A stretch of 64,000 nt of DNA from Chloroflexota bacterium (GTDB lineage Bacteria > Chloroflexota > UBA11872): NCBI GenBank assembly GCA_026708035.1, contig JAPOVQ010000006.1, positions 123,554-187,553 on the forward strand, given 5' to 3'. The notes beneath the pieces were generated by a model. That model saw nothing but the letters and a program-made list of their open reading frames with translations, did not search any database and was not told the DNA's origin. Shown here piece by piece: positions 1 through 11,349 of this stretch. A program made the translations under genes and the position numbers. Each line of letters opens with the position of its first letter. Position 1 is the stretch's first letter.

Positions 1-677
1 ATCTGCGCCACAACGGCACGGACCTTTACCCCACGCTCAAGGCCGCCCAGCGCCCGCCCGCGAGCGAGCGGCTGGACGTGAGCTGGGACCTGATGGAGCT
101 GTACGGCTTCTTCCCCTCACCCGGCGATCGCCATGTCAGCGAGTTCTTCCCCTGGTATTCGCGCCCAGGCGACGACGGCAAGCTGCCGCGCGGGCTGTTC
201 AGCTTCGACATGGACGAGTACTTCGATCGCGGGGCCGAGGTTCAGCAGCGGTTCACGGAGATTGCCGGCGGATCGGCGCCGCTGCCCGACTCGCTGTTCA
301 AGGCCACCAGCGAAAAGGCCGTCAAGCTGATCGCGGCCTTGGCGGCCGGCCGCGGCGGCAGCTACCACGTCAACATTCCCAACGAGGGCGCCGTCAGCAA
401 TCTCGCACCGTGGGCCAACGTCGAGGTGCCGGCCTGGTTCGACGCGAGCGGCATGGCCCGCGAGCCGGTGGGCGCGCTCCCTGAAGCCGTCGCCGGGACG
501 CTGCGTCCCTGGATCGACCAACTGGAACTCCTCGCCGACGCCATCATCCAGCGCGACCGCGAGCTCGCCCTGCTGGCGCTCCTCGCCGACCGCACAATCG
601 TGGACGTTGACGTCGGCCTCGCCATGGGCCGCGAGCTGCTGGACGCCCACGCCGACTACCTGCGCGAGTACCGCTAG
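1..677 (+). CDS. glycoside hydrolase family 4-like protein (NAD/Mn-dependent glucosidase type), C-terminal part; 5' end lies outside window
   Basis: Frame 3 is open from base 3 to the stop at 677. Conserved GH4-like C-terminal segment (HVNIPNEGAVSNL, PWIDQLELLADAII). GC3-rich codon usage. Confidence 0.6.
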   Translation, partial: LRHNGTDLYPTLKAAQRPPASERLDVSWDLMELYGFFPSPGDRHVSEFFPWYSRPGDDGKLPRGLFSFDMDEYFDRGAEVQQRFTEIAGGSAPLPDSLFKATSEKAVKLIAALAAGRGGSYHVNIPNEGAVSNLAPWANVEVPAWFDASGMAREPVGALPEAVAGTLRPWIDQLELLADAIIQRDRELALLALLADRTIVDVDVGLAMGRELLDAHADYLREYR

Positions 678-704
678 GCTTCTAGGAGAGGAGTCCTTCG
701 TCAA

Positions 705-737
705 CTACCGTCATTCCGGCGGAAGTCGGAATCCAGT
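705..737. repeat. short palindromic repeat, family E (CGTCATTCCGGCGGAAGTCGGAATCCAG-like)
   Basis: Inverted repeat TCCGGCGGA/.../CGGAATCC. Reverse-complement copy at 63333-63361; related pieces at 21396-21412, 61760-61775, 63226-63250. Confidence 0.6.
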
Positions 738-768
738 CCGGGCGAACCTGGGGCGCGCTGAGGACTAG

Positions 769-798
769 ATGTAGGGGCGGGTCTCAGACCCGCCCGTC
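769..798. repeat. short palindromic repeat, family C (GTAGGGGCGGGT-loop-ACCCGCCC)
   Basis: Hairpin GGGCGGGTCTCAGACCCGCCC. Further copies at 54912-54936, 55058-55086, 60287-60310, 60338-60363. Confidence 0.65.
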
Positions 799-836
799 AG
801 TGGTGCTGGCAGAATTCTCGACAAGGAGATCACCCA

Positions 837-1211
837 ATGCCATTCGTCGACCCAACAACCGCCAATAACCTGACGCACGACGCCATCGCCGCCATCAAGC
901 AGCGCAACGGCTCGGGCACCTGGCGCGAACGCATCAGCGCCACTACCGAGCACCGCAGCGTGCTGCTGCACTGGCCGCCGGGAACCGCCCAGGCCGCGCA
1001 CTACCACCCCGACTGCGAAGAGGTCTTCGTCGTGCACGAGGGCTGCGCCGAGTTCACCTTCGACGACGAGCCGCCGCTCGAGGCGAGCCCCGGTTCGGTG
1101 CTCTACGCCCCCCGCGGCTACCGGCATTCGCTCCGCGTCGTCGGCGACGCCCCGCTGCTGATGATGTGCTTCCTCGCGCCCAACCTCCCGGACGACGAGG
1201 TTTCGGCCTGA
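837..1211 (+). CDS. cupin domain protein
   Basis: 124 aa with a cupin-type two-His/Glu motif region (HYHPDCEEVFVVHEG ... YAPRGYRHS). Hairpin-containing repeat just upstream; plausible RBS GGAG before ATG. Confidence 0.65.
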   Translation: MPFVDPTTANNLTHDAIAAIKQRNGSGTWRERISATTEHRSVLLHWPPGTAQAAHYHPDCEEVFVVHEGCAEFTFDDEPPLEASPGSVLYAPRGYRHSLRVVGDAPLLMMCFLAPNLPDDEVSA

Positions 1212-1244
1212 GTCGACCAGCCGGCGGAACCTAGTCGTCCGCCC

Positions 1245-2276
1245 TCAGCGAGCCAACTCCAAACGCGGGTCGCGGTGGGCGTCGGGGCGCAGCTCGGATA
1301 GGCGGATCAGGCCGCGGTGCCAGGGGTATCCGCGCGGCACGCGCTCGGCGTTGATCGCCGGGCTCGTCCAGAAGTACTGGACCACCGCGTCTTCCGGCGC
1401 CGTATAGGTCTTGATGTGGTTGCCGGCCAGGTCTTCAAGCACGCCCACCCGCTGGCCCTTGCTCACCTTCTGACCGATGCTGACTTCCGACTGCCAATAG
1501 CCGCTCTCCAGCGATTCCATGCTCCACCGCCGAGGACCGAGGATCGCCTGCGGCGGAACCTCCACGGGCTCGCCGTCGATCATGTCGAAGCGCTTCAGGG
1601 CATTCGCTAGCGACTGGTACTGAAGCTCGATCTCCGCCGGATCCTGGACGCCGTTCTGACCGATCTCCGTCCAGACGTTCGCGACGCCCTCGCGCAGCAG
1701 CGTGAACGGCAACCCCTGGTCCAATTCGGAGAACTTGTCCTGGATGTCGGCCTGGCGCGGGTCCAGGTAGGGCACCGGCATGGAACCGGCCAGCCGCCAG
1801 GTGTCCCGCCGCAGGCGCTCGTTCGTCGTCGGGTCGGCGAACGCCACCCACGGGTCCAGCGCCTGCACGTATTCGCCCGCGTGCATGTCGACGTGAAAAT
1901 CGAGGTCGCGCAGCAGATTGAAGACGCAGTCGATCTGGAATTCGGAGTAGTTCCCCTCGGGCCGGCCCGCCGGCTGGAAATGCAGCTCGCGCTCGTCGAC
2001 CGGGGATAGCTGCGTCGACCGGGCGAAGAACGCCCGCGTGCTCATGATGGGGATGATGCGGACCTCGCCGCGCAGCGTCGCCGGATCGAGCTCGCGCCAG
2101 AGACGAATCGCGGCGCGCATGCCCGCAAACTCGCCCGAGTGCATGCCGGATGAGATGCCGAACTTGGGGCCCGACCGCGCCCCGACGACCGTGCCTACGG
2201 GGATCTCCAACTCCTCGCCCGAATGGTGGACATACCGCTCGACCCGAGCAGTCTTGGACCCGCCGCGAGCGCTCAT
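1245..2276 (-). CDS. succinylglutamate desuccinylase/aspartoacylase (AstE/AspA) family zinc amidohydrolase
   Basis: M14-like HxxE motif (GMHSGEFAG) and downstream His (FHVDMHAGEY). Start ATG at 2276 overlaps the upstream gene's stop in an ATGA junction. Confidence 0.75.
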   Translation of the reverse strand: MSARGGSKTARVERYVHHSGEELEIPVGTVVGARSGPKFGISSGMHSGEFAGMRAAIRLWRELDPATLRGEVRIIPIMSTRAFFARSTQLSPVDERELHFQPAGRPEGNYSEFQIDCVFNLLRDLDFHVDMHAGEYVQALDPWVAFADPTTNERLRRDTWRLAGSMPVPYLDPRQADIQDKFSELDQGLPFTLLREGVANVWTEIGQNGVQDPAEIELQYQSLANALKRFDMIDGEPVEVPPQAILGPRRWSMESLESGYWQSEVSIGQKVSKGQRVGVLEDLAGNHIKTYTAPEDAVVQYFWTSPAINAERVPRGYPWHRGLIRLSELRPDAHRDPRLELAR

Positions 2277-3562
2277 GCCGCCTCCCACCCGCACCAGTCG
2301 AGGACGAAGGCAATCGCCGTCTTCGTCACCGGGGCCAGATCGTTCAAGTCGAAGAACTCATCCACCGAGTGCGCCCCGCCGCCGCTGCCGGGACCAAAGA
2401 GGCAGCCCGGCGTTGGCCGTCGCAGGCTGTGCTGGTGCAGGTCGCAGAAGCCGGTGATCGCCACCGGCCCGAGCGGCTGCCCCGTGGTGATCTGATGCGC
2501 CTCGGCCAGATGCTTCACCACGGCGTTGTCGTCCCCCATGTCCAGCGGCTCCAACGCCAGACCTTGGAACGTGACCTGCGGCGGATGATCCCGCAGCCAT
2601 TCGTCCTGCGCGGCGGCCTGGGCCACGGTCGCCTCGATCTCCGCCCGCGCGTCGGCCACGGTCTCGGGCGGCATGAAGCCCAACGCCGCGTCCAGCACGC
2701 AGCGAGCGGCAACCGTGCCGACCCACTCACCGCCGGCGATGCCGTAGACGTTGAAGTGAATTGGTTGGTCGGTGCCGGCCCAGCGCGGCGGGATGCTCTC
2801 GTTCTTCTTCGCCTCGAGCTCGCGCAGCGCCCGGATCACCACCCACGCTTTCTCGATGGCGTTCACACCGTGGGTGGCCGAGATGTACGGCACCGGCTTG
2901 CCGTGGATCGTGACGCGGAAGGCCACGTGACCGGGGTGGGCCACGATCGCTCGACCCAGTCCGGTGCCGTCCAGCATCAGCACGCCGTCGGCCTCGTATC
3001 CCGCCGCGACCAGCGCCAGCGAACCGTTGCCGGAACACTCCTCGTCGATGGTGGTCTCGAGAATGAGGTCGCCCTTCAGACGCAGGCCCGCGTCCTGCAG
3101 CGCCTGCACCACGAACAACATCTCGCAGCAGCCGGCCTTGTCGTCCTGGGCGCCGCGCGCATAGAGGCGATTGCCGTCGATTTCGCCGCCCCAGGGGTCG
3201 CGGCTCCACAGCTCCACCGGCTCCGGGGAGGTGGTGTCCACGTGCGCGTTGAGGATCAGCGACCGCCCGCCGCCGGCACCGGGCCAGCGGCCCGCCACGT
3301 TCGGCCGGTTCTCATAGGACCAGTCGGTGGAGCTCCAGGTGGGATAGCGGGCCAGCGCGTCGGGGTCGCATTCGATCATCTCCACGTCCAGCCCGAGGTC
3401 TCGCATGCGGCGCGCCATCCACTGCTGCGCCGCCAGCTCCTCCCCGCGCGGGCTGGGAATGCGCACAAACTGCTGGAGGCTGGCGACGTGTTCGTCATGG
3501 CGCCGGTCGAAGGCCTCCCAGGCCGCCGCCCGCGCGGCGACGAGGTCAAGCGTCGCGGTCAT
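2273..3562 (-). CDS. M20 family metallopeptidase/amidohydrolase (ArgE/DapE/ACY1-like)
   Basis: M20 signatures in translation (NAHVDT, GAQDDK, ETTIDEECSGNGS, dimerisation-domain region). Start chosen at ATG 3562 (MTATLDL...), preceded by GGAGG. An in-frame upstream ATG at 3631 is also possible. Confidence 0.8.
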   Translation of the reverse strand: MTATLDLVAARAAAWEAFDRRHDEHVASLQQFVRIPSPRGEELAAQQWMARRMRDLGLDVEMIECDPDALARYPTWSSTDWSYENRPNVAGRWPGAGGGRSLILNAHVDTTSPEPVELWSRDPWGGEIDGNRLYARGAQDDKAGCCEMLFVVQALQDAGLRLKGDLILETTIDEECSGNGSLALVAAGYEADGVLMLDGTGLGRAIVAHPGHVAFRVTIHGKPVPYISATHGVNAIEKAWVVIRALRELEAKKNESIPPRWAGTDQPIHFNVYGIAGGEWVGTVAARCVLDAALGFMPPETVADARAEIEATVAQAAAQDEWLRDHPPQVTFQGLALEPLDMGDDNAVVKHLAEAHQITTGQPLGPVAITGFCDLHQHSLRRPTPGCLFGPGSGGGAHSVDEFFDLNDLAPVTKTAIAFVLDWCGWEAA

Positions 3563-4532
3563 CTCGACCTGCCTCCGCCACCGTGACCGTGCGCGCGAAC
3601 CATGGATCGCCGTCAGGGTCGGGCTCGACATTGACGGCCATGCTGGTGGTAACCGCTAGGACCGCGCCGTCGAATGGCGCGGTCACCTCTTGGACTGGCT
3701 CGCCGAAGTAATCCCAGATTTGACCAAGCGTTTCACCGGCGGCTACTTTCGCCCCCGGACTGGTTGCCGGCACCCATAGCCCCGGGGAGTCGACCACGTG
3801 GCTCCAGATCTCCGGACCGACGACACGCAGCGGCACCGCGCGGTCCGTCACGACTCCGTCGATCACATCCAGGGCATCCAGCACGCGCAGCAGGTCGTCC
3901 AATAGGACCTGGGCGTCGCCGACGACGTCGCTTACGCCGCCGCCGCCCGTAACGATGAGCGCCGCGCGGCCTCGAGTCGCCATGTGACCGGCGGCACCCA
4001 ATTCGATTGCCGTCGGGTCATTCGGATCCACGGCAACGCGCATCTCGACTCCGGAAGCCACGGCCAGGGCCAGGGACTCGAACTGCGAAGCCGCTGGCGG
4101 AACGGCGGCCCAGTGGGCGTGCAGCTCGGTCAGCTCGCCGCCGCGAACGTCGATGTGAACGTCGGCGTCCGCCAGGGCTTCGGTCACGGCCTGGGCGATA
4201 CGGTCGCTCGCCGACGGCTTCCCCGCTCTCTCGGCGGCGGCGAAAGCCCCGGCCACTGCGCGGCCATCCAGCGGGCAGAAACGGGCGGCCCGTCCATAGA
4301 ACCCCGTCACATCCACAACCGGCACGATGCGCACGCGTCCCCTGGTCAGAAGCCCAGGCAAGCGCTTGGCCAACATGCGGCACGCCGAGATGCCCGGATA
4401 CGCCGTGCCGGCAAGGCCGCCGACGATGTTGATCAACGGCCCCGGCGTCGCGGCGGAGATTTCGGTCAGCGGGATTTCGGCCGAGGGATGCCCAGGCACG
4501 ACAATCGCCCGAACTTCTCGCTCAGCCGTCAT
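3546..4532 (-). CDS. AstE/AspA family paralog, probably lacking canonical zinc ligands
   Basis: Collinear with the 1245-2276 product, but the HxxE position reads GLAGTAYPG and the second His region reads DVRGG. Coding-like GC3 bias. First gene of the three-gene minus-strand unit. Confidence 0.6.
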   Translation of the reverse strand: MTAEREVRAIVVPGHPSAEIPLTEISAATPGPLINIVGGLAGTAYPGISACRMLAKRLPGLLTRGRVRIVPVVDVTGFYGRAARFCPLDGRAVAGAFAAAERAGKPSASDRIAQAVTEALADADVHIDVRGGELTELHAHWAAVPPAASQFESLALAVASGVEMRVAVDPNDPTAIELGAAGHMATRGRAALIVTGGGGVSDVVGDAQVLLDDLLRVLDALDVIDGVVTDRAVPLRVVGPEIWSHVVDSPGLWVPATSPGAKVAAGETLGQIWDYFGEPVQEVTAPFDGAVLAVTTSMAVNVEPDPDGDPWFARTVTVAEAGRDDRDA

Positions 4533-4864
4533 GCGTCAACCACCTGGCGCTGGCCCTTGCGATCAGACGATTTTGAGCGGCACGCATCGCATGCGTTGTC
4601 CGGTCGGCAATGCCGGAGCATGAAGATCCCAACAGGATTGCAGCGCCGGAGTTTAGCATTCTGACAATATGGGTGATTGTGATCTACGGACCGGAGACCG
4701 ATAGAGTCGCCAATCAATTCCGGACTGCTTCCAATCACTTCACACGAATCTAAATTGTGCTTTATAAGTATATTCACCCCAACGTTTCTCTTGATATTCA
4801 AGCCGAATCTGACCACATGCTATCATTTACACCACCATTGCATTGATGCGTATCGGATCATTAC
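4533..4864. promoter_or_regulatory. AT-rich divergent intergenic region (putative bidirectional promoter region)
   Basis: Sharp local GC drop between divergently oriented genes (4532 minus, 4865 plus). Several TTGaca/TAtaaT-like hexamers are present, but none can be assigned confidently. Confidence 0.35.
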
Positions 4865-5635
4865 ATGGTCACCCCACGGCTTGCGGGCAAGATAGCCATC
4901 GTCACCGGCGCGGCGTCCGGCATCGGACGCGCCAGCGCCATTCGCTTCGCCCGCGAAGGCGCCAACGTAGTGATCGCCGATATCAACACAGCCGGAGGCG
5001 AGCGGACCGTCGAATTGATCGATCAAGAAGGCGGCGAAGCGTCGTTCATCCATTGCGACGTTTCCGACACCGAAAACGTGCAGGCACTCGTCGAGGAGAC
5101 TCTCGCCACCCACGGCCGCATCGACATCCTCTTCGCCAACGCCGCCTACCTGGACGAGCTCTTCGGCGTGGCCGAGACCTCGGAGGAGGTCTGGGACCGG
5201 CACATCGGCGTCACCCTCACCGGCGTCTACCTGTGCTGCAAGTACGTCATTCCACACATGATTCAAGCCGGCGGCGGATCGATCCTCGCAACCTCATCGG
5301 TCGGCGGCTCGGTCGCCTTCGATCGTCAGTCGGCCTACTGCACCGCCAAGGCGGGCGTTGAGATGCTGATGAAGACCATCGCGCGGGACTACGGCCGCGC
5401 CGGCATCCGGGCCAACGCCCTCGCGCCCGGCGCCGTATATACGCCGGTGATGGAGGACGTAAAGCGCCGCAATCCCGACGGCTGGGACCAGGTGCTGCGC
5501 GACATGAGCCTGATGGAGCGCCTCTGGGCCGAGCCCGAGGACATCGCGGCCGCCGCCGCCTACCTCGTCAGCGACGAAGCGGCCTTCGTCACGGGCACCG
5601 TGCTCACCGTCGACGGCGGCTGGACGGCCCACTAG
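4865..5635 (+). CDS. SDR family NAD(P)-dependent oxidoreductase
   Basis: [10 protein letters not shown] Rossmann motif, NAA, and catalytic YCTAK (YxxxK) in a 256-aa translation. Confidence 0.9.
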
Positions 5636-5658: not shown

Positions 5659-6621
5659 CTACGCCCGCTCGAGGAACACCTGGATAACCCGTCCATCGGT
5701 GCGAATCATGACGGCGCCGGCAAGGTCGGTGCGAAAGACCTCCGCGCCACGCGCACGGAGTCGACGCAGAGCGCCATCCCGCGGGTGGTCGAAGGCGTTG
5801 TAGCGTCCGGCTGACACCACCGCGATCTGAGGGCCGACGGCCTCCAGGAATGCAGCGGTGGACGAGCTATTGGAGCCGTGGTGCGGCACTTTGAGCACGT
5901 CGGCAGGCTGCAGGAGCCCGGACTCCAGGAGTTCCTGCTCCGCAGACGCTTCGATGTCGCCCGTCAAGAGCATCGCCGATGTCCGATAGGCCAGATGCAG
6001 CACGACCGACCGGTCGTTGTCGGCGTCCGGACCCGGTTCCGGCGGGTTGAGCACCGACAGGTCCACCCGTGGGTGCCATGCCAGCGCGTCGCCCCGCTTC
6101 ACCGGCTGAACCACCACGCCGGCGTCACGGGCCAGGTCGATCACCTCGCGCATCACCGGATGGCTCAGATCATCATCGGCGTGCACCACGGTCCCGACGG
6201 CGAACTCGCGCATGACCGTCGGCGCGCCGCCAATATGGTCTCCGTCGGCATGCGTCAGTATTAGGTAGTCGAGGCGCTCCACGCCCAGTCGCCGCAGCCG
6301 CGGCACGATCGCCGCGCCGGCGGTCCGCGCATCGGGTCCCGCGTCGACCAGCATGGTCGCGTCGTCCAGCCGCATGAGTAGGGCGTCGCCCTGACCGACA
6401 TCCAGTGCGCGCAGCTCGAGCTCGCCGCCCACGAGCGGCGGCAGCGCGCCCGAGTCCGGACGCGCCCGGATCACGCTGGCGACCACGATGAGCAGCGCCG
6501 CCAGCAATAGGAGCGCCGCCAGGCGGGGTCTCACCGCCGGACCGACGGGCGGCAATCCTGCCTGTCGCAGGCGCCGACCAATGGCGTCAATCCAGGCGGC
6601 GAAGAGCGCGATCAGTGGCAC
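5659..6621 (-). CDS. MBL-fold metallo-hydrolase, ComEC/Rec2-type beta-lactamase domain with N-terminal TM segment
   Basis: LDVGQGDA, THADGDHIGG and VPHHGS motifs typical of the ComEC C-terminal MBL domain. Single hydrophobic helix near the N-terminus. Confidence 0.7.
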   Translation of the reverse strand: MPLIALFAAWIDAIGRRLRQAGLPPVGPAVRPRLAALLLLAALLIVVASVIRARPDSGALPPLVGGELELRALDVGQGDALLMRLDDATMLVDAGPDARTAGAAIVPRLRRLGVERLDYLILTHADGDHIGGAPTVMREFAVGTVVHADDDLSHPVMREVIDLARDAGVVVQPVKRGDALAWHPRVDLSVLNPPEPGPDADNDRSVVLHLAYRTSAMLLTGDIEASAEQELLESGLLQPADVLKVPHHGSNSSSTAAFLEAVGPQIAVVSAGRYNAFDHPRDGALRRLRARGAEVFRTDLAGAVMIRTDGRVIQVFLERA

Positions 6622-6742
6622 GAGCGAAGGCGTTGCGGGCCCGGTCCCGCTGCTACCGGATCAGGACGCGCTATTTGTGAGGCCGCGCCGCCGCGCAGGA
6701 CGCCGCCGGCCACGTGCCGGGACAGAGATCGGCGGCAGACGG

Positions 6743-8022
6743 TCAGAGCGGGCGGACGTGCCCATCGCCGCGCACGACCCATTTGTACGTGGTCAGCTCG
6801 CGCAGGCCCATCGGCCCCCGGGCGTGCAGCTTCTGGGTGCTGATGCCCACCTCGGCGCCGAGTCCGAACTCGCCGCCGTCCGTGAACTGGGTGGACGCGT
6901 TCACGTACACCGCCGCCGCGTCGACCTCGTCGAGGAAGCGCTCGGCATTGGTGAGCGAGCGGGTCACGATCGCCTCCGAGTGGCCCGATCCGTGCGTCTG
7001 GATGTGGTCCAGCGCCTCATCGATGCCGTCCACGACGACCACCGACATGCGCAGGTCTTGCCATTCGGTGTCCAGGTCATCGCCCGTTAGGTTCACAACC
7101 CGGGCAAGGCCGTCCAGGAGCGGCAGCGCCTCGGCGTCAGCGTGCATCTCCACGTCCTTGTCCGCCAGGGCCTGCCCCACGGTCGGCACGAACTCCGACG
7201 CCACCGATCGATCGACCAGCAGGGTGTCGAGGGCGTTGCAGATCGACGGCCGCCGGGTCTTGGCGTTCACCACGATGCGCTCGGCCGCCGCCAGATCGGC
7301 GCCTGCGTCCACATAGGTGTGGCACACGCCCCAGCCGGTTTCGATCACCGGCACCGAAGCCGTCTTGGTCACGAATTCGATCAGCCCTTGGCCGCCGCGA
7401 GGCACCACGACATCCACGCCATGGCGCGCCTGCAACAGCTCGCGCACCAGGTCCCGGTCGGGATTGGTGATGGCCTGAATCGCGTCGGCCGGCACGCCGG
7501 CCGCCTGCAGCGCCTCGCGCGCCAGCCGAACCAGCGCGCCGGTGCTGTGCTGGGACTCGCTGCCGCCGCGCAGAATCACCGCGTTGCCGGACTTGAGGCC
7601 CAAGGCCGAGATATCGATGGCCACGTTGGGGCGCGACTCGAAGACTGCCCCGATCACCCCCAGCGGCACGCGACGTCGGGCCACCTCCAGGCCGTTGGGC
7701 AACCGACGCGCGTCGACCGACTCGCCCACCGGGTCGGGGAGACCGATCACCGTGCCGAGCGCGTCCGCGATCCCGTCGATCCGCGCCGGTGTAAGCGTGA
7801 GACGGTCGATATAGGCGTCCTCACGACCCGCGGCACGCGCTTGCGCCACGTCCCGCGCGTTTGCCGCCAGCACATCGGTCTGCTCGGCTCGGAGCGCCGC
7901 GGCCATCGCCTCGAGCGCCTGGTTCTTGGCGTCGGCGTCCAGCTTGGCGACTTCACGCGCGGCGCGGCGCGCCGCCGCGACCAGATCGGGAACGCTCGGC
8001 CGAACGGCGGTTGGCGCGTCAA
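6743..8022 (-). CDS. proA: gamma-glutamyl phosphate reductase
   Basis: Strong ProA-like translation throughout. First ATG is at 7906, but the ProA-like reading frame (…EEVVINAAIDAP…) stays open upstream to a TAA. The true start is probably a non-ATG codon between 7906 and 8022. Confidence 0.8.
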
Positions 8023-8049
8023 TTGCGGCGTTGATGACGACCTCCTCGG

Positions 8050-9162
8050 TCAGGCGTGGGCACTGTCGAGCAAGACCAGGTTATTGCGATGCACGGCTTC
8101 CGCCCCGTGGTCGTAATCGAGGATCGACGCAATCAAGTGTGACGGCCGACCCAAGATCCGCACCAAGTCGTGCGAGGCATAGTTTACGAGTCCGCGGGCG
8201 AAGACTCGTTCATCGGGCCCGGCCACCGCCACCACGTCACCCCGGATGAAGTCGCCATCCACGGCGCAGATGCCGGCGGGAAGCAGGCTCCGCCCAGCAT
8301 CGGTGAGCGCTTCCTTGGCGCCTCCGTCGACGCGCAGGGTGCCGCGCTCGGTGGCCGCGGAGCTGAGCCAGCGGGCTCGGCTGGTGCGGGTCACTGGTCG
8401 CGGCGCAAATCGCGTGCCGATGCGCTCGCCGGCAGCGATGCGCGAAAGGACGTCGGGCTCGTTGCCGCTGGCGACGACGACCTCGATACCGTCGAAGCTA
8501 GCGCTGCGAGCCGCCTCGACCTTCGATCGGACGCCTCCCGAGCCGCCGGCGCCGGCCGCTCCCGCGGCGCTGGCCAACAACTCGTCCGTTATCGCATGTC
8601 CGTCCCGAATCAGCTCCGCGTCCGGATGGCGACGAGGATCCCCGGTATAGAGACCGTCGGTTGCCGTGAGCAGGATCAGCAGATCGGCGTCAACCAGCTG
8701 CGCAATCAGGGCCGACAGCGGGTCGTTGTCGCCAAACCGCAGCTCCTCCGTCGCAACCACGTCGTTCTCGTTGGCGATCGGCAACACGCCCTGATCCAGC
8801 AAGCCGGTGAGGGCGTTGCGCGCGTTGAGAAACCCGTCGCGCGTGGTCAGGTCGGCGCGGGACATCAACGTCTGCGCCACGGTGATGTCGTGCGCCGCGA
8901 ACACCGTGCCGTAGCGGGCGATGAGCGGCGCCTGTCCCACGGCGGCCAGGACCTGGCGCGTGGTGAGCTGATTGCCTTGCAGGTGGAGCCTGGCGCGTCC
9001 TGCCGCCACCGCCCCTGAGGACACGAGCACCACCTCGGCGCCACCCCGCATGAGCGAGGAAATCTGCGCCGCGATCTGCTCGATGTAGGGCTCGTTGAGG
9101 CCGGCAGGCGTCGTGAGCAGCTGCGTGCCGCACTTGACGACGATGCGCTTTCGACCAGACAT
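8050..9162 (-). CDS. proB: glutamate 5-kinase with C-terminal PUA domain
   Basis: MSGRKRIVVKCGT... amino-acid kinase fold followed by a PUA-like C-terminus. ATG at 9162. ORF-track start at 9336 is an upstream in-frame extension. Confidence 0.85.
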   Translation of the reverse strand: MSGRKRIVVKCGTQLLTTPAGLNEPYIEQIAAQISSLMRGGAEVVLVSSGAVAAGRARLHLQGNQLTTRQVLAAVGQAPLIARYGTVFAAHDITVAQTLMSRADLTTRDGFLNARNALTGLLDQGVLPIANENDVVATEELRFGDNDPLSALIAQLVDADLLILLTATDGLYTGDPRRHPDAELIRDGHAITDELLASAAGAAGAGGSGGVRSKVEAARSASFDGIEVVVASGNEPDVLSRIAAGERIGTRFAPRPVTRTSRARWLSSAATERGTLRVDGGAKEALTDAGRSLLPAGICAVDGDFIRGDVVAVAGPDERVFARGLVNYASHDLVRILGRPSHLIASILDYDHGAEAVHRNNLVLLDSAHA

Positions 9163-9285
9163 GGTGACCGGGGCTCCAGATCCGCCGTGCCGCTCGGGTG
9201 CGTGATTGTAGGGACTCGCCGATATAATGGCGCTCCCCCGCGCCGCGCGCCTTGTGGCGTGCCCAGCCCGAAGGAACTCACGGCC

Positions 9286-11349
9286 ATGGATCGGGACAAC
9301 AGCGACACGATCCGGAACGTGGTGTTCGTGGCGCACAGCGGCGCCGGCAAGACCTCGCTCACCGAGGCCATGGCCTTCGTGACCGGGCAGACTTCGCGTC
9401 TTGGTCGGGTGGAAGACGGCAACACCATCTCCGACTTCGACCCGGACGAGGTGGAACGGGGCATGTCGATCAACCTTTCGGTCGTGCCCTGCCCCTGGCG
9501 CGGCGCCACGGTCAACGTCATCGATACGCCGGGATATCCGGACTTCATCGGCGACGTGGTCTCGGGTCTGCGGGCGGCGGATGCGGCGATCGTGGTGATC
9601 GACGCCACCGCTGGCATTCAGGTCGGCACCGAAATCGTGTGGCGGCTCGTCGACCGACGGGACCGCCCGCGACTCGTGGTCGTGAATCGCATGGACCGCG
9701 AAAACGTGAACTGGGAAAACGTCGTCCAGGAGCTGCGCGACAAGTTTGGCGCGGCCATCGCCCCCATCCAGATCCCGCTGGGCGACGCGCCGGCGTTCGA
9801 CGGCGTGGTCGATCTACTTGACGGCACGGCCCGCGCGTTCACCGACAGCGGCAGCGAGCCGATCCCGGTGCCTGACGAGTTGGCCGAGACGGTCGAGATC
9901 GCGCGCGAGCAACTCACCGACGCGGTGGCCGCCACCGACGACGACCTGCTTGAAAAGTATCTGGAGGGCGAAGAGCTCGAGCGCAGCGATCTCGAGCGGG
10001 CGCTGCGGGAAGGCGTGCGCGCCGGAGAGGTCTACCCCGTCGTGTTTACCGCCGCCACGGCGACCCACGGCGCGCGCGAATTGCTCGACGCCATCACCGC
10101 CGTGTTGCCGGCGCCGTCGGACCTGCCCGTCGCGCCCACCGCAAACGGCGCGACCATTGACTTCGCAAGCGACGGGCCGGTCGTCGCCCAGGTGTTCAAG
10201 ACCCTCGCCGACCCGTTCGTGGGCAAGGTGTCCCTGCTGCGCCTCTACACCGGGACGATCTCGGGGGACGTCGAGTTGCGCAACCAGACCAGCGGCCGGA
10301 ACGAGCGGCTCTCGGGCTTCCAATACCCCGTCGGCAAGGGCGGCGAGCAAGCGCGAGTCGTCGTGGCCGGCGACATCGCGTTCGTCACCAAGCTGGAGAA
10401 CGTCGCCACCGGTGACACGCTGGTGTCGGACGGCTCCGCGGACAAGATGGGCGCGCTGGACATGCCCACGCCGCTGTTCGAGGCCGCCATCACGCCGGCG
10501 ACCCAGGCCGACCTGGACAAGATGGGCCAGGTGCTCGCGCGAATCGCGGAGGAGGACCCGTCGCTGCGCGTGGGGCGCGACGAGCAGACCGGAGAGACCA
10601 TCCTGGCCGGTCTGGGCGAGTCGCACGTGCATATCAGCCTCGAGCGCATCCGGCGCAAGTTCGGCGTGAACCTGTTGTCCGACGTGCCGCGGGTGCCCTA
10701 TCTCGAGACCATTCGCAAGACTGTGAACGCGCATGGGCGGCACAAGCGGCAATCCGGCGGTCGCGGGCAGTTCGGGGACGTGCACATCGAGTTCTCCCCG
10801 CGGGAGCGAGGCGCGGGCTTCGAGTTCGCGGACCGCATCAAGGGCGGCGCGATTCCCAGGCAATACCTGCCCGCCGTGGAGAAGGGGCTCGTCGAGTGCT
10901 TTGCCAGTGGCTCGCTGGCGGGATACCCCGTGGTGGACATCAAGGCGGCGGCGTTCGACGGGCAATACCACGACGTCGACTCGTCCGACGAGTCCTTCCG
11001 CAACGCCGCCCGGCTGGCGGTGGAGGACGGCTACCACCAAGCCAGCCCCGTGATCCTGGAGCCGATTGTCAAGCTCGCCATCGAAATCCCGGACCTGAAC
11101 ACGGGTGACGTGATCGGCGACATCAGCGCGCGGCGCGGGCACGTGCTGGGCATGAATCCCGCCGATTACGACGGCGCCACGATCGTCGAAGTCGAGGTAC
11201 CAAAGGCGGAGGTGCAGCGCTACGCCACCGACCTGCGCTCGATCACGCAGGGACGGGGACAGTTCACCAGCGCCTTCGTTCGCTACCAGGAAGTGCCGCC
11301 GCACGTGCAGGATCGCCTCGTCGCCGAGGCGGCCGCCGAGAACGGCTAG
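9286..11349 (+). CDS. elongation factor G-like translational GTPase (EF-G paralog)
   Basis: G1 AHSGAGKTS, G3 DTPGYPDF, G4 NRMD, EF-G domains II-V. ATG 9286 preceded by GAAGGA. Confidence 0.85.
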   Translation: MDRDNSDTIRNVVFVAHSGAGKTSLTEAMAFVTGQTSRLGRVEDGNTISDFDPDEVERGMSINLSVVPCPWRGATVNVIDTPGYPDFIGDVVSGLRAADAAIVVIDATAGIQVGTEIVWRLVDRRDRPRLVVVNRMDRENVNWENVVQELRDKFGAAIAPIQIPLGDAPAFDGVVDLLDGTARAFTDSGSEPIPVPDELAETVEIAREQLTDAVAATDDDLLEKYLEGEELERSDLERALREGVRAGEVYPVVFTAATATHGARELLDAITAVLPAPSDLPVAPTANGATIDFASDGPVVAQVFKTLADPFVGKVSLLRLYTGTISGDVELRNQTSGRNERLSGFQYPVGKGGEQARVVVAGDIAFVTKLENVATGDTLVSDGSADKMGALDMPTPLFEAAITPATQADLDKMGQVLARIAEEDPSLRVGRDEQTGETILAGLGESHVHISLERIRRKFGVNLLSDVPRVPYLETIRKTVNAHGRHKRQSGGRGQFGDVHIEFSPRERGAGFEFADRIKGGAIPRQYLPAVEKGLVECFASGSLAGYPVVDIKAAAFDGQYHDVDSSDESFRNAARLAVEDGYHQASPVILEPIVKLAIEIPDLNTGDVIGDISARRGHVLGMNPADYDGATIVEVEVPKAEVQRYATDLRSITQGRGQFTSAFVRYQEVPPHVQDRLVAEAAAENG

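Follow-up and report, generated by a model that had tools for sequence, protein, structure and literature searches.

A ligand-less AstE/AspA paralogue as the putative non-catalytic partner of an intact zinc deacylase in uncultured Chloroflexota

The window analysed here is a 64,000-nucleotide (nt) stretch of a Chloroflexota bacterium genome (GTDB lineage UBA11872; assembly GCA_026708035.1, contig JAPOVQ010000006.1, positions 123,554 to 187,553 of the forward strand). Near its start, a minus-strand operon encodes two paralogues of the M14-like AstE/AspA superfamily, hereafter denoted A1 (the 3546–4532 product) and A2 (the 1245–2276 product), and an enzyme of the M20 family (the 2273–3562 product, hereafter M20). 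A1 lacks the catalytic residues that A2 retains, and the two are encoded together at every locus with a full-length A1. On balance, A1 is probably a non-catalytic partner of A2, with which it would form a physical complex. The three genes of the operon are as follows.

3546..4532, minus strand: A1, 328 amino acids (aa), an AstE/AspA-fold paralogue without zinc ligands or general base; gene 1 of the operon.
2273..3562, minus strand: M20, 429 aa, an ArgE/DapE-family deacylase; overlaps A1 by 17 nt.
1245..2276, minus strand: A2, 343 aa, an AstE/AspA-fold deacylase with zinc site and general base intact.

A1 and A2 share 27% identity in BLASTP (E 1e-29), and the alignment pairs GGLAGTAYPG of A1 with SGMHSGEFAG of A2, as well as HIDVRGGE with HVDMHAGE. 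The residue correspondence was based on BLASTP, three MAFFT alignments, and one hidden Markov model (HMM) alignment, which agree at the ligand columns: in A1, the His is replaced by Ala41, the Glu by Ala44, and the distal His by Arg130. A first-pass annotation of the window had read A1 by eye as lacking all three zinc ligands, and this reading is upheld by the three kinds of alignment. The general-base Glu (TEIG in A2) is gone in addition, its position being occupied by Thr195 in A1 and by Ser or Thr across the A1 clade. In the phmmer alignment of A1 with 3cdx, the third motif is displaced by two residues, yet no His of A1 falls on the ligand position. The first motif, GGLAGTAYPG, contains no His, Asp, or Glu and, whatever the register, has no side chain that could bind metal. 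The Asn-Arg pair of the catalytic site is not kept in A1 either, these positions being Ala-Gly or variable residues. The residue losses suggest that A1 is catalytically inactive.

The fold of the family is retained in A1. A1 matches 3cdx at 2.1e-9 over residues 15–286, and it scores 22 bits on PF24827 (AstE/AspA catalytic domain), below the gathering score of 25. The AlphaFold2 (AF2) model of A1 has a predicted local distance difference test score (pLDDT) of 89.5 and a predicted template modeling score (pTM) of 0.91, and its best Foldseek matches are 3cdx, 6twm, 2qj8, and 3na6, with template modeling (TM) scores of 0.73–0.77, those for 3cdx and EutE being 0.74–0.77. The model consists of the two family domains only, with no DNA-binding or other added domain. 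By sequence and fold homology, A1 is a member of the AstE/AspA superfamily, composed of the catalytic domain and the C-terminal hybrid domain.

In A2, the zinc site (His46, Glu49, and His132) and the general base Glu204 are intact (signature HEFHFHE); the canonical HxxE and distal His first noted by eye are thus confirmed by the alignments. A2 is a member of the same superfamily by sequence homology, matching 3cdx at 2.5e-15 and EutE/DoeB (6twm) at 6.6e-6; its PF24827 score (19.4 bits) is below the gathering score of 25, and its AF2 model has a pLDDT of 90.5 and a pTM of 0.90. Residues 99–100 of A2 are His99-Phe100, in place of the Asn-Arg pair of the family. His-Phe or His-Tyr occupies these positions in A2 and 50 relatives (51 sequences, paired and unpaired; the sub-clade relatives are P0031–P0084 in the analysis set), while Asn-Arg is found in the 92 canonical relatives retrieved. 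A C-terminal extension of about 25 residues (TS-x-A-x-N ... P-x-G-x-x-W) is common to A1, A2, and the unpaired relatives and is absent from canonical members. With its His-Phe/Tyr pair and this extension, the A2 sub-clade seems to form a specificity class of its own in the family, as yet uncharacterised. Since A1, A2, and the unpaired relatives share the extension, A1 arose by duplication inside the A2 sub-clade.

Loci carrying the pair were gathered by contig look-ups, a one-genome-per-species scan, and a metagenome scan, and were mapped by tblastn and HMM. The named genomes among them are all metagenome-assembled genomes (MAGs) of Chloroflexota. A2 lies downstream of A1 on the same strand in all 21 non-redundant loci with a full-length A1, and, in the reverse direction, A1 lies upstream in each of the five paired-clade A2 proteins queried independently. 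The first-pass annotation had staked its proposal on co-conservation of the two paralogues, which was thus found in both directions. The ligand-loss signature is present in A1 at every locus in the HMM alignment. In a neighbour-joining tree, A1 and paired A2 each form a monophyletic clade, the two subtrees mirror each other, and the unpaired His-Phe/Tyr proteins branch outside the paired-A2 clade. The pairwise divergences of A1 and A2 are correlated with r = 0.97, A1 evolving 2.1 times faster. A reciprocal loss accompanies this co-divergence: the Tyr next after the ligand Glu in HxxEY (residue 45 of A1) is kept in 16/16 A1 sequences, in the unpaired relatives, and in the canonical proteins, while the same column in paired A2 only (residue 50) is Phe, Pro, Ser, or Ile.

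The A1 clade is small and discrete, as judged from its few profile matches and a clear score gap. A word-index search returned 28 close A1 homologues with 50–91% identity, and an exhaustive A1 profile search of 1.84 billion cluster representatives yielded just 11 matches below 1e-30. The profile score falls from 552 bits to 315–144 for the next matches, with the remaining family at 121 or less. The four catalytic positions are lost in 16/16 diverse members of the clade, down to 38% identity, and Ala44 (the Glu position) and Arg130 (the distal-His position) are invariant in the same set. Strict clade-specific motifs are G-x-G-T-A-Y-x-G-I and R-G-G-E-x-x-E-x-H-x-x-W, and the C-terminal domain is strongly conserved. 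In homologues with 38–50% identity, 62 columns are conserved at 90% or more. The invariant clade-specific residues Arg130, His138, Asp74, His245, Tyr45, and Thr43 include former active-site positions. Over 12 syntenic loci, the median ratio of nonsynonymous to synonymous substitution rates (dN/dS) is 0.23 for A1, 0.089 for A2, 0.11 for M20, and 0.11 for proA, and the A1 open reading frame (ORF) is intact in 21/21 loci. A1 is under purifying selection, about 2.5 times more relaxed than that on A2.

The layout of the operon in the window agrees with the first-pass annotation, which had described three coupled minus-strand genes next to a cupin gene; the four ORFs were all recovered in place. M20 starts at the ATG at 3562, giving a 17-nt overlap with A1 (A1 stop at 3546–3548), and GGAGG lies 9 nt upstream of this ATG. 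M20 ends and A2 begins within one ATGA (2273–2276), which is preceded by GGGAGG. A longer M20 ORF, extending to 3631, is possible; the start at 3562 is favoured because the homologue calls give 429 aa and the identical 17-nt overlap (L004). No further AstE/AspA paralogues were found elsewhere in the window.

M20 is a regular member of its family and is dispensable to the pair. It scores 378.7 bits on NF005306 (ArgE/DapE family deacylase; cutoff 376), matches Peptidase_M20 at 6e-26 and M20_dimer at 4.8e-11, and aligns with 3pfo at 2.6e-62 over residues 15–426. M20 lies between A1 and A2 in 13 loci (the window, L004, L011–L019, L021, and L043), including the distant L043, where the identities to the window proteins are 44% for A1, 80% for M20, and 65% for A2. 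In the other eight loci (L005, L007, L020, L022, L026, L027, L040, and L044), A1 and A2 are neighbours without M20 between them, with 38–47% (A1) and 55–68% (A2) identity to the window proteins. Three further loci (L001–L003) carry the SDR gene described below, A1 (50%), and M20 in that order and reach the contig end before A2. L023 (MAG CB27_AW.76, 2740–4650) holds a rearranged SDR-A1-M20-A2 cluster with an intact M20 of 427 aa. About 55 residues from the C-terminal end of A1 survive there, joined to a piece of GH4 in a 140-aa ORF, and A2 is reduced to 68–78 aa, followed by a 2-hydroxyacid dehydrogenase gene. The same MAG has an intact A1-A2 pair elsewhere (L020), and the rearrangement could be a real co-loss or an assembly artefact. 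The first-pass annotation had the heteromer working with M20; M20 is not an obligatory part of the unit, as it is not between the pair in 8/21 loci and is the sole intact gene of the three in L023.

The operon is flanked in the window by the following features, which include genes for a glycoside hydrolase of family 4 (GH4) and a short-chain dehydrogenase/reductase (SDR).

1..677, plus strand: 3' part of a GH4 glycosidase gene (Glyco_hydro_4C, 2.5e-26), cut by the window start; same convergent operon as the cupin gene.
837..1211, plus strand: cupin gene (Cupin_2, 5e-14), the final gene of a convergent transporter-SDR-GH4-cupin operon.
4593..4658, minus strand: conserved block, a probable promoter or operator, inside the 332-bp divergent intergenic region between A1 and the SDR gene.
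4865..5635, plus strand: SDR oxidoreductase gene (adh_short_C2, 1.3e-68), divergent from A1.

The convergent operon begins beyond the window edge and ends with the cupin gene, whose position and strand were correctly called in the first pass. In syntenic loci, its order is a family-5 solute-binding protein (SBP), two permeases, two Opp/Dpp-type ATPases, SDR, GH4, and cupin. The transporter genes that the first-pass annotation had suggested seeking just beyond the window start are therefore present in these loci, as a family-5 ATP-binding cassette (ABC) importer. The cupin gene is syntenic in ten type I loci, and in L040 the module is likewise convergent, with cupin at 59% and GH4 at 62% identity. 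A GH4 orthologue present at full length (430 aa) in L013 reaches 331 bits on NF011657, the model of an alpha-galactosidase subfamily, for which the cutoff is 486. In L043, the module is fused with the A1-A2 operon into one co-directional run of ABC ATPase, SDR, GH4, A1, M20, A2, and 2-hydroxyacid dehydrogenase genes. There, GH4 lies directly upstream of A1, and the A1-M20, M20-A2, and A2-2-hydroxyacid dehydrogenase junctions are overlapping or abutting. Three types of locus have an SDR orthologue beside A1: it is divergent at 85–92% identity in the type I loci and at 61% in L020, and co-directional just upstream of A1 (72%) in L001–L003. A 2-hydroxyacid dehydrogenase gene is also a neighbour in L040, L023, and L007. 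The convergent operon and the divergent SDR gene are the neighbours of the cluster that are functionally conserved.

Several of the M20-less loci lie in islands rich in amide hydrolases (FmdA/AmdA, M19, M24, Amidohydro_1/2, Hydantoinase_B, and M14). Creatinine or hydantoin catabolism was considered for these loci and set aside: the neighbours are amidohydrolases of many kinds, none of which is at an equivalog cutoff. Genes resembling those for SGL lactonases or acid-sugar dehydratases, and family-5 SBP transporters, adjoin the unpaired relatives. For the unpaired relative in L038, murein-peptide recycling of the MpaA/YcjG type was rejected, as the best match of the MR_MLE neighbour is an acid-sugar dehydratase and not a dipeptide epimerase. 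Mobile-element genes occur beside M20-less pairs at L040 54–2306, L044 1–882, and L007 1–916, the kinds seen being Prim-Pol/D5 primase-helicase, phage-type integrase, and insertion-sequence transposase (rve). These neighbours suggest that the A1-A2 pair may move horizontally among Chloroflexota. In the window, the cluster is bordered at 5659–9336 (minus strand) by a ComEC-like gene of the metallo-beta-lactamase fold, proA, and proB, a synteny found in all type I loci; the ComEC-like assignment was made by eye and from a Lactamase_B match in L004. Extra DNA is present between A2 and the cupin gene in two syntenic loci, at L004 11355–13367 (encoding a 670-aa leucine-rich repeat/beta-propeller protein) and at L019 13288–15819, which points to the convergent A2/cupin junction as an insertion site.

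The region upstream of A1 contains a block of about 66 nt (4593–4658), located 60–125 nt upstream of the A1 start, that is far better conserved than its flanks across 9–13 syntenic loci. The block begins with TGCTAAACT (TGnTAAACT, extended -10-like) and carries two CTCCGGC repeats; judged from its sequence, it is probably a promoter or operator. The GC content of the A1/SDR intergenic region (4533–4864) is about 0.60, versus 0.69. A scan for consensus sigma-70 promoters detected no promoter in this region. The terminator scan returned a single terminator-like site, within the M20 gene, fewer than the shuffles gave. A riboswitch or structured leader upstream of A1 was considered and rejected: there is no Rfam match at E of 1 or less, the alifold consensus is -2.5 kcal/mol with one covarying pair, and the single-sequence z-score is +0.64. 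No gene for a transcription regulator adjoins the cluster in the window.

Ligand-less or altered members occur elsewhere in the family. In the unrelated low-GC genome GCA_016840025.1, locus L041 carries a ligand-less member at 432–1424 (plus strand; GCTQGSTY ... DFRGGD, with Gln, Thr, Arg, and Met at the catalytic positions and the base Glu lost), and an intact member convergent to it at 1454–2443 (minus strand; GGEHGSEY ... NLHGGD ... TEAGG). Since the ligand-less member does not have the C-terminal extension of A1 and A2, this pair is probably of independent origin, with the same His-to-Arg change. A different pattern, Tyr-Glu ... Arg at the ligand positions with Asn-Arg and the base Glu kept, is found at L030 3208–4044, L031 313–1221, L033 1733–2587, and in one gene of L032. 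The latter locus contains three paralogues (4328–5338, plus strand; 6709–7734 and 7843–8928, minus strand), one Tyr-Glu-Arg and two intact; its neighbours appear by eye to be class-III aminotransferase-like, ornithine-cyclodeaminase-like, and family-5 SBP genes. Given L041 and L032, pairing with a dead paralogue may extend beyond the A1 clade.

A mechanism consistent with these observations can be outlined. Duplication within one AstE/AspA sub-clade gave rise to A1 and A2, of which A2 retained the mononuclear zinc site and would act as the catalytic amidohydrolase. A1 lost all four catalytic residues, has an invariant Arg at the distal-His site, and is kept by purifying selection as a folded two-domain protein. 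Working as a subunit of A2, it may confer stability or activity on its partner or help to form the partner's substrate pocket. The pair would operate in a catabolic route with the family-5 SBP ABC importer, GH4, SDR, and 2-hydroxyacid dehydrogenases, often together with M20. The most likely role would be N-acyl removal from an imported sugar- or glycoside-linked amino compound, and M20 may hydrolyse a further amide in this route, in a step separable from that of the pair. The first-pass annotation had envisaged catabolism of an N-acyl or N-succinyl amino compound. N-acyl removal is retained here as the putative chemistry, and a classical N-acyl amino acid becomes less likely as the substrate because A2 has His-Phe in place of the catalytic-site Asn-Arg. 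Together with the neighbourhood pattern, this loss of Asn-Arg makes an N-acylated sugar or glycoside-like compound a better candidate, though with low confidence, than a free N-acyl amino acid.

Several observations weigh against A1 as the partner of A2. The invariant residues of A1 would also fit retained ligand binding or new chemistry, and not a scaffold alone. In the M20-less loci, most A1-A2 gaps are about 40–270 bp, so there is no translational coupling, and the reciprocal-loss signal comes from one column alone. Unpaired A2-like proteins with 42–45% identity exist in L009, L036, and L038 with no A1 alongside, so that the A2-type active site is probably self-sufficient. No neighbour gene scanned reaches an equivalog cutoff, and the substrate assignment is drawn from the neighbourhood only. 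The first two of these points favour the main rival, in which A1 is neo-functionalised as a metal-independent enzyme or as a ligand binder for a pathway intermediate and forms no stable complex with A2. The invariant residues include two former ligand positions and nearby motif positions, the entire C-terminal domain is strongly conserved, and the gaps in most M20-less loci leave A1 uncoupled from A2. Furthermore, the Tyr-Glu-Arg members of the family keep Asn-Arg and the base Glu, which hints that Arg-bearing sites may function. In A1, however, the base Glu is gone too, with no evident substitute nucleophile or base. The roughly twofold faster evolution of A1 than of A2 and its 2.5 times higher dN/dS indicate a relaxed constraint, as is seen more typically in non-catalytic partners. 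Staying strictly next to A2 through deep divergence suits a subunit better than a consecutive enzyme; genes of consecutive enzymes often shuffle, as that of M20 does. We therefore regard neo-functionalisation as a serious but rather unlikely account.

An improbable alternative is that A1 acts transiently as a regulatory or quality-control factor, either as a substrate sensor or as a chaperone for the assembly or metallation of A2. It would account for the absence of a regulator gene beside the cluster in the window, for the operator-like conserved block upstream of A1, and for the gene order, in which A1 is always first and A2 later. A related precedent is EutE: its reported cooperation is with an unrelated enzyme, EutD, which it is proposed to assist through transient interactions (PMC8739950). 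The A1 model, however, shows two family domains only, with no DNA-binding or added domain. A1 might instead serve M20, for instance as a non-catalytic adaptor of the M20 dimer, as the translational coupling implied by the 17-nt overlap in the window and the A1-M20 order in 13 loci, plus L001–L003, would allow. The eight loci with A1-A2 and no M20 between them, and L023, in which M20 is intact and A1 and A2 are mostly deleted, exclude this partnership and leave it very improbable. Finally, the loss of every catalytic residue and a dN/dS that is the highest among the three genes might mark A1 as a functionless, decaying duplicate and incipient pseudogene. This explanation, which retains a negligible probability, is refuted by a dN/dS of 0.23, well under 1, by the intact ORF at all loci, by the deep conservation of 62 columns, and by the confident fold prediction. 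The reading in which A1 is a non-catalytic partner of A2 is thus preferred. A broader version of it would be that the AstE/AspA family has repeatedly evolved obligate two-paralogue enzymes, each with a zinc copy and an Arg-bearing copy serving as an essential activating or specificity subunit; this extension is tentative and somewhat doubtful. Under it, which is to be held equally loosely, an A2-type enzyme would be inactive or mis-targeted without its A1, and the Chloroflexota and L041 pairs would represent two independent instances of a general architecture that has so far gone unrecognised.

The first-pass annotation had stated that, to its knowledge, no pseudoenzyme partner is described in this family. 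The literature agrees with this statement: no inactive or heteromeric AstE/AspA member, including a dead partner for ASPA or AstE, appears in the literature searched, the coverage of which is incomplete and therefore not proof. A dead-paralogue partner would accordingly be new to a family in which none was found described, and the case reported here is restricted to a small clade in uncultured Chloroflexota. Its implications may be wider. The annotation 'succinylglutamate desuccinylase/aspartoacylase family' is common and mostly attached to uncharacterised proteins, and some of these are conserved ligand-less copies that in every case lie beside an intact copy. Automatic annotation calls both copies enzymes, and pathway reconstructions may thereby count an activity that does not exist. 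If the intact copy needs its partner, assays that leave the partner out may fail. The pair offers a tractable system, consisting of two small soluble proteins with clear residue predictions and with unpaired relatives as a natural control. Through its linkage to GH4, SDR, and ABC importer genes, the pair also gives a lead to a catabolic route of uncultured Chloroflexota that has yet to be characterised.

Among characterised proteins, ASPA coordinates zinc through His21, Glu24, and His116, and its catalytic-site residues include Glu178, Arg63, Asn70, and Arg71 (PMC5412892). His21, Glu24, His116, and Glu178 correspond to His46, Glu49, His132, and Glu204 of A2, while Asn70-Arg71 is conserved in neither A1 nor A2. 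ASPA and AstE belong to the same superfamily and are distant (Foldseek TM about 0.5). The two-domain fold is shared with EutE/DoeB (N-acetyl-L-2,4-diaminobutyrate deacetylase, 6twm/6twl) and with the uncharacterised 3cdx, 3na6, and 2qj8. A2 has in common with EutE/DoeB the HxxE...H ligands and the general-base Glu, but differs by His-Phe for Asn-Arg and by the C-terminal extension, and A1 is without the entire catalytic set. The DoeB equivalog TIGR02994 has a cutoff of 402.7 bits, of which A1 reaches 28.4 and A2 50.6. The window cluster contains no ectoine hydrolase gene (EutD/DoeA, M24), nor did any turn up in the type I loci; only in L020 does an M24/Creatinase_N gene lie near the pair, and it scores 54–65 bits on ectoine hydrolase models with cutoffs of 575–613. 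The analogy with DoeB drawn in the first pass consequently stands for the fold, in line with the TM scores and sequence matches given above, and fails for orthology, and DoeB-type ectoine catabolism is rejected, given the equivalog scores and the lack of a EutD gene. The partners also differ in kind, EutE being reported to work with the unrelated EutD and A2 putatively with a dead paralogue.

Dead paralogues that act as partners are known from other families. In Trypanosoma brucei, S-adenosylmethionine decarboxylase (AdoMetDC) is activated by a catalytically dead paralogue, 'prozyme' (PMC5201418). As proposed for A1, a dead paralogue is kept there as an activator, but the system is eukaryotic, has an unrelated fold and no operon, and its activation is demonstrated, while that by A1 is hypothetical. 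The M20 enzyme, by comparison with NF005306 and 3pfo ('putative acetylornithine deacetylase'), is a regular member, but is encoded here between two AstE/AspA paralogues. A parallel to the pathway type suggested by L043 is the chb operon of E. coli, in which the deacetylase ChbG acts before the GH4 glycosidase ChbF. GH4 is co-operonic with an N-deacylase and an importer in both, which serves as a lead only, as ChbG belongs to the YdjC family, uptake is through a phosphotransferase system, and neither M20 nor a dead paralogue is involved. The closest known way of working is that of the M16 heteromers with one inactive paralogous subunit, namely the alpha/beta mitochondrial processing peptidase and the bacterial M16B pairs encoded by adjacent genes. 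In these pairs, as in the operon described here, adjacent paralogous genes encode one protein with the zinc motif and one without it; the two M16 subunits are both needed as one enzyme, as may hold for A1 and A2. Their fold and family are unrelated to those of A1 and A2, and the complex is demonstrated for M16 and proposed for A1-A2. If the partnership proposed here is correct, the AstE/AspA family would join the M16 peptidases and other systems in which a heteromeric enzyme arose when a gene was duplicated and one of the two copies then lost its active site.

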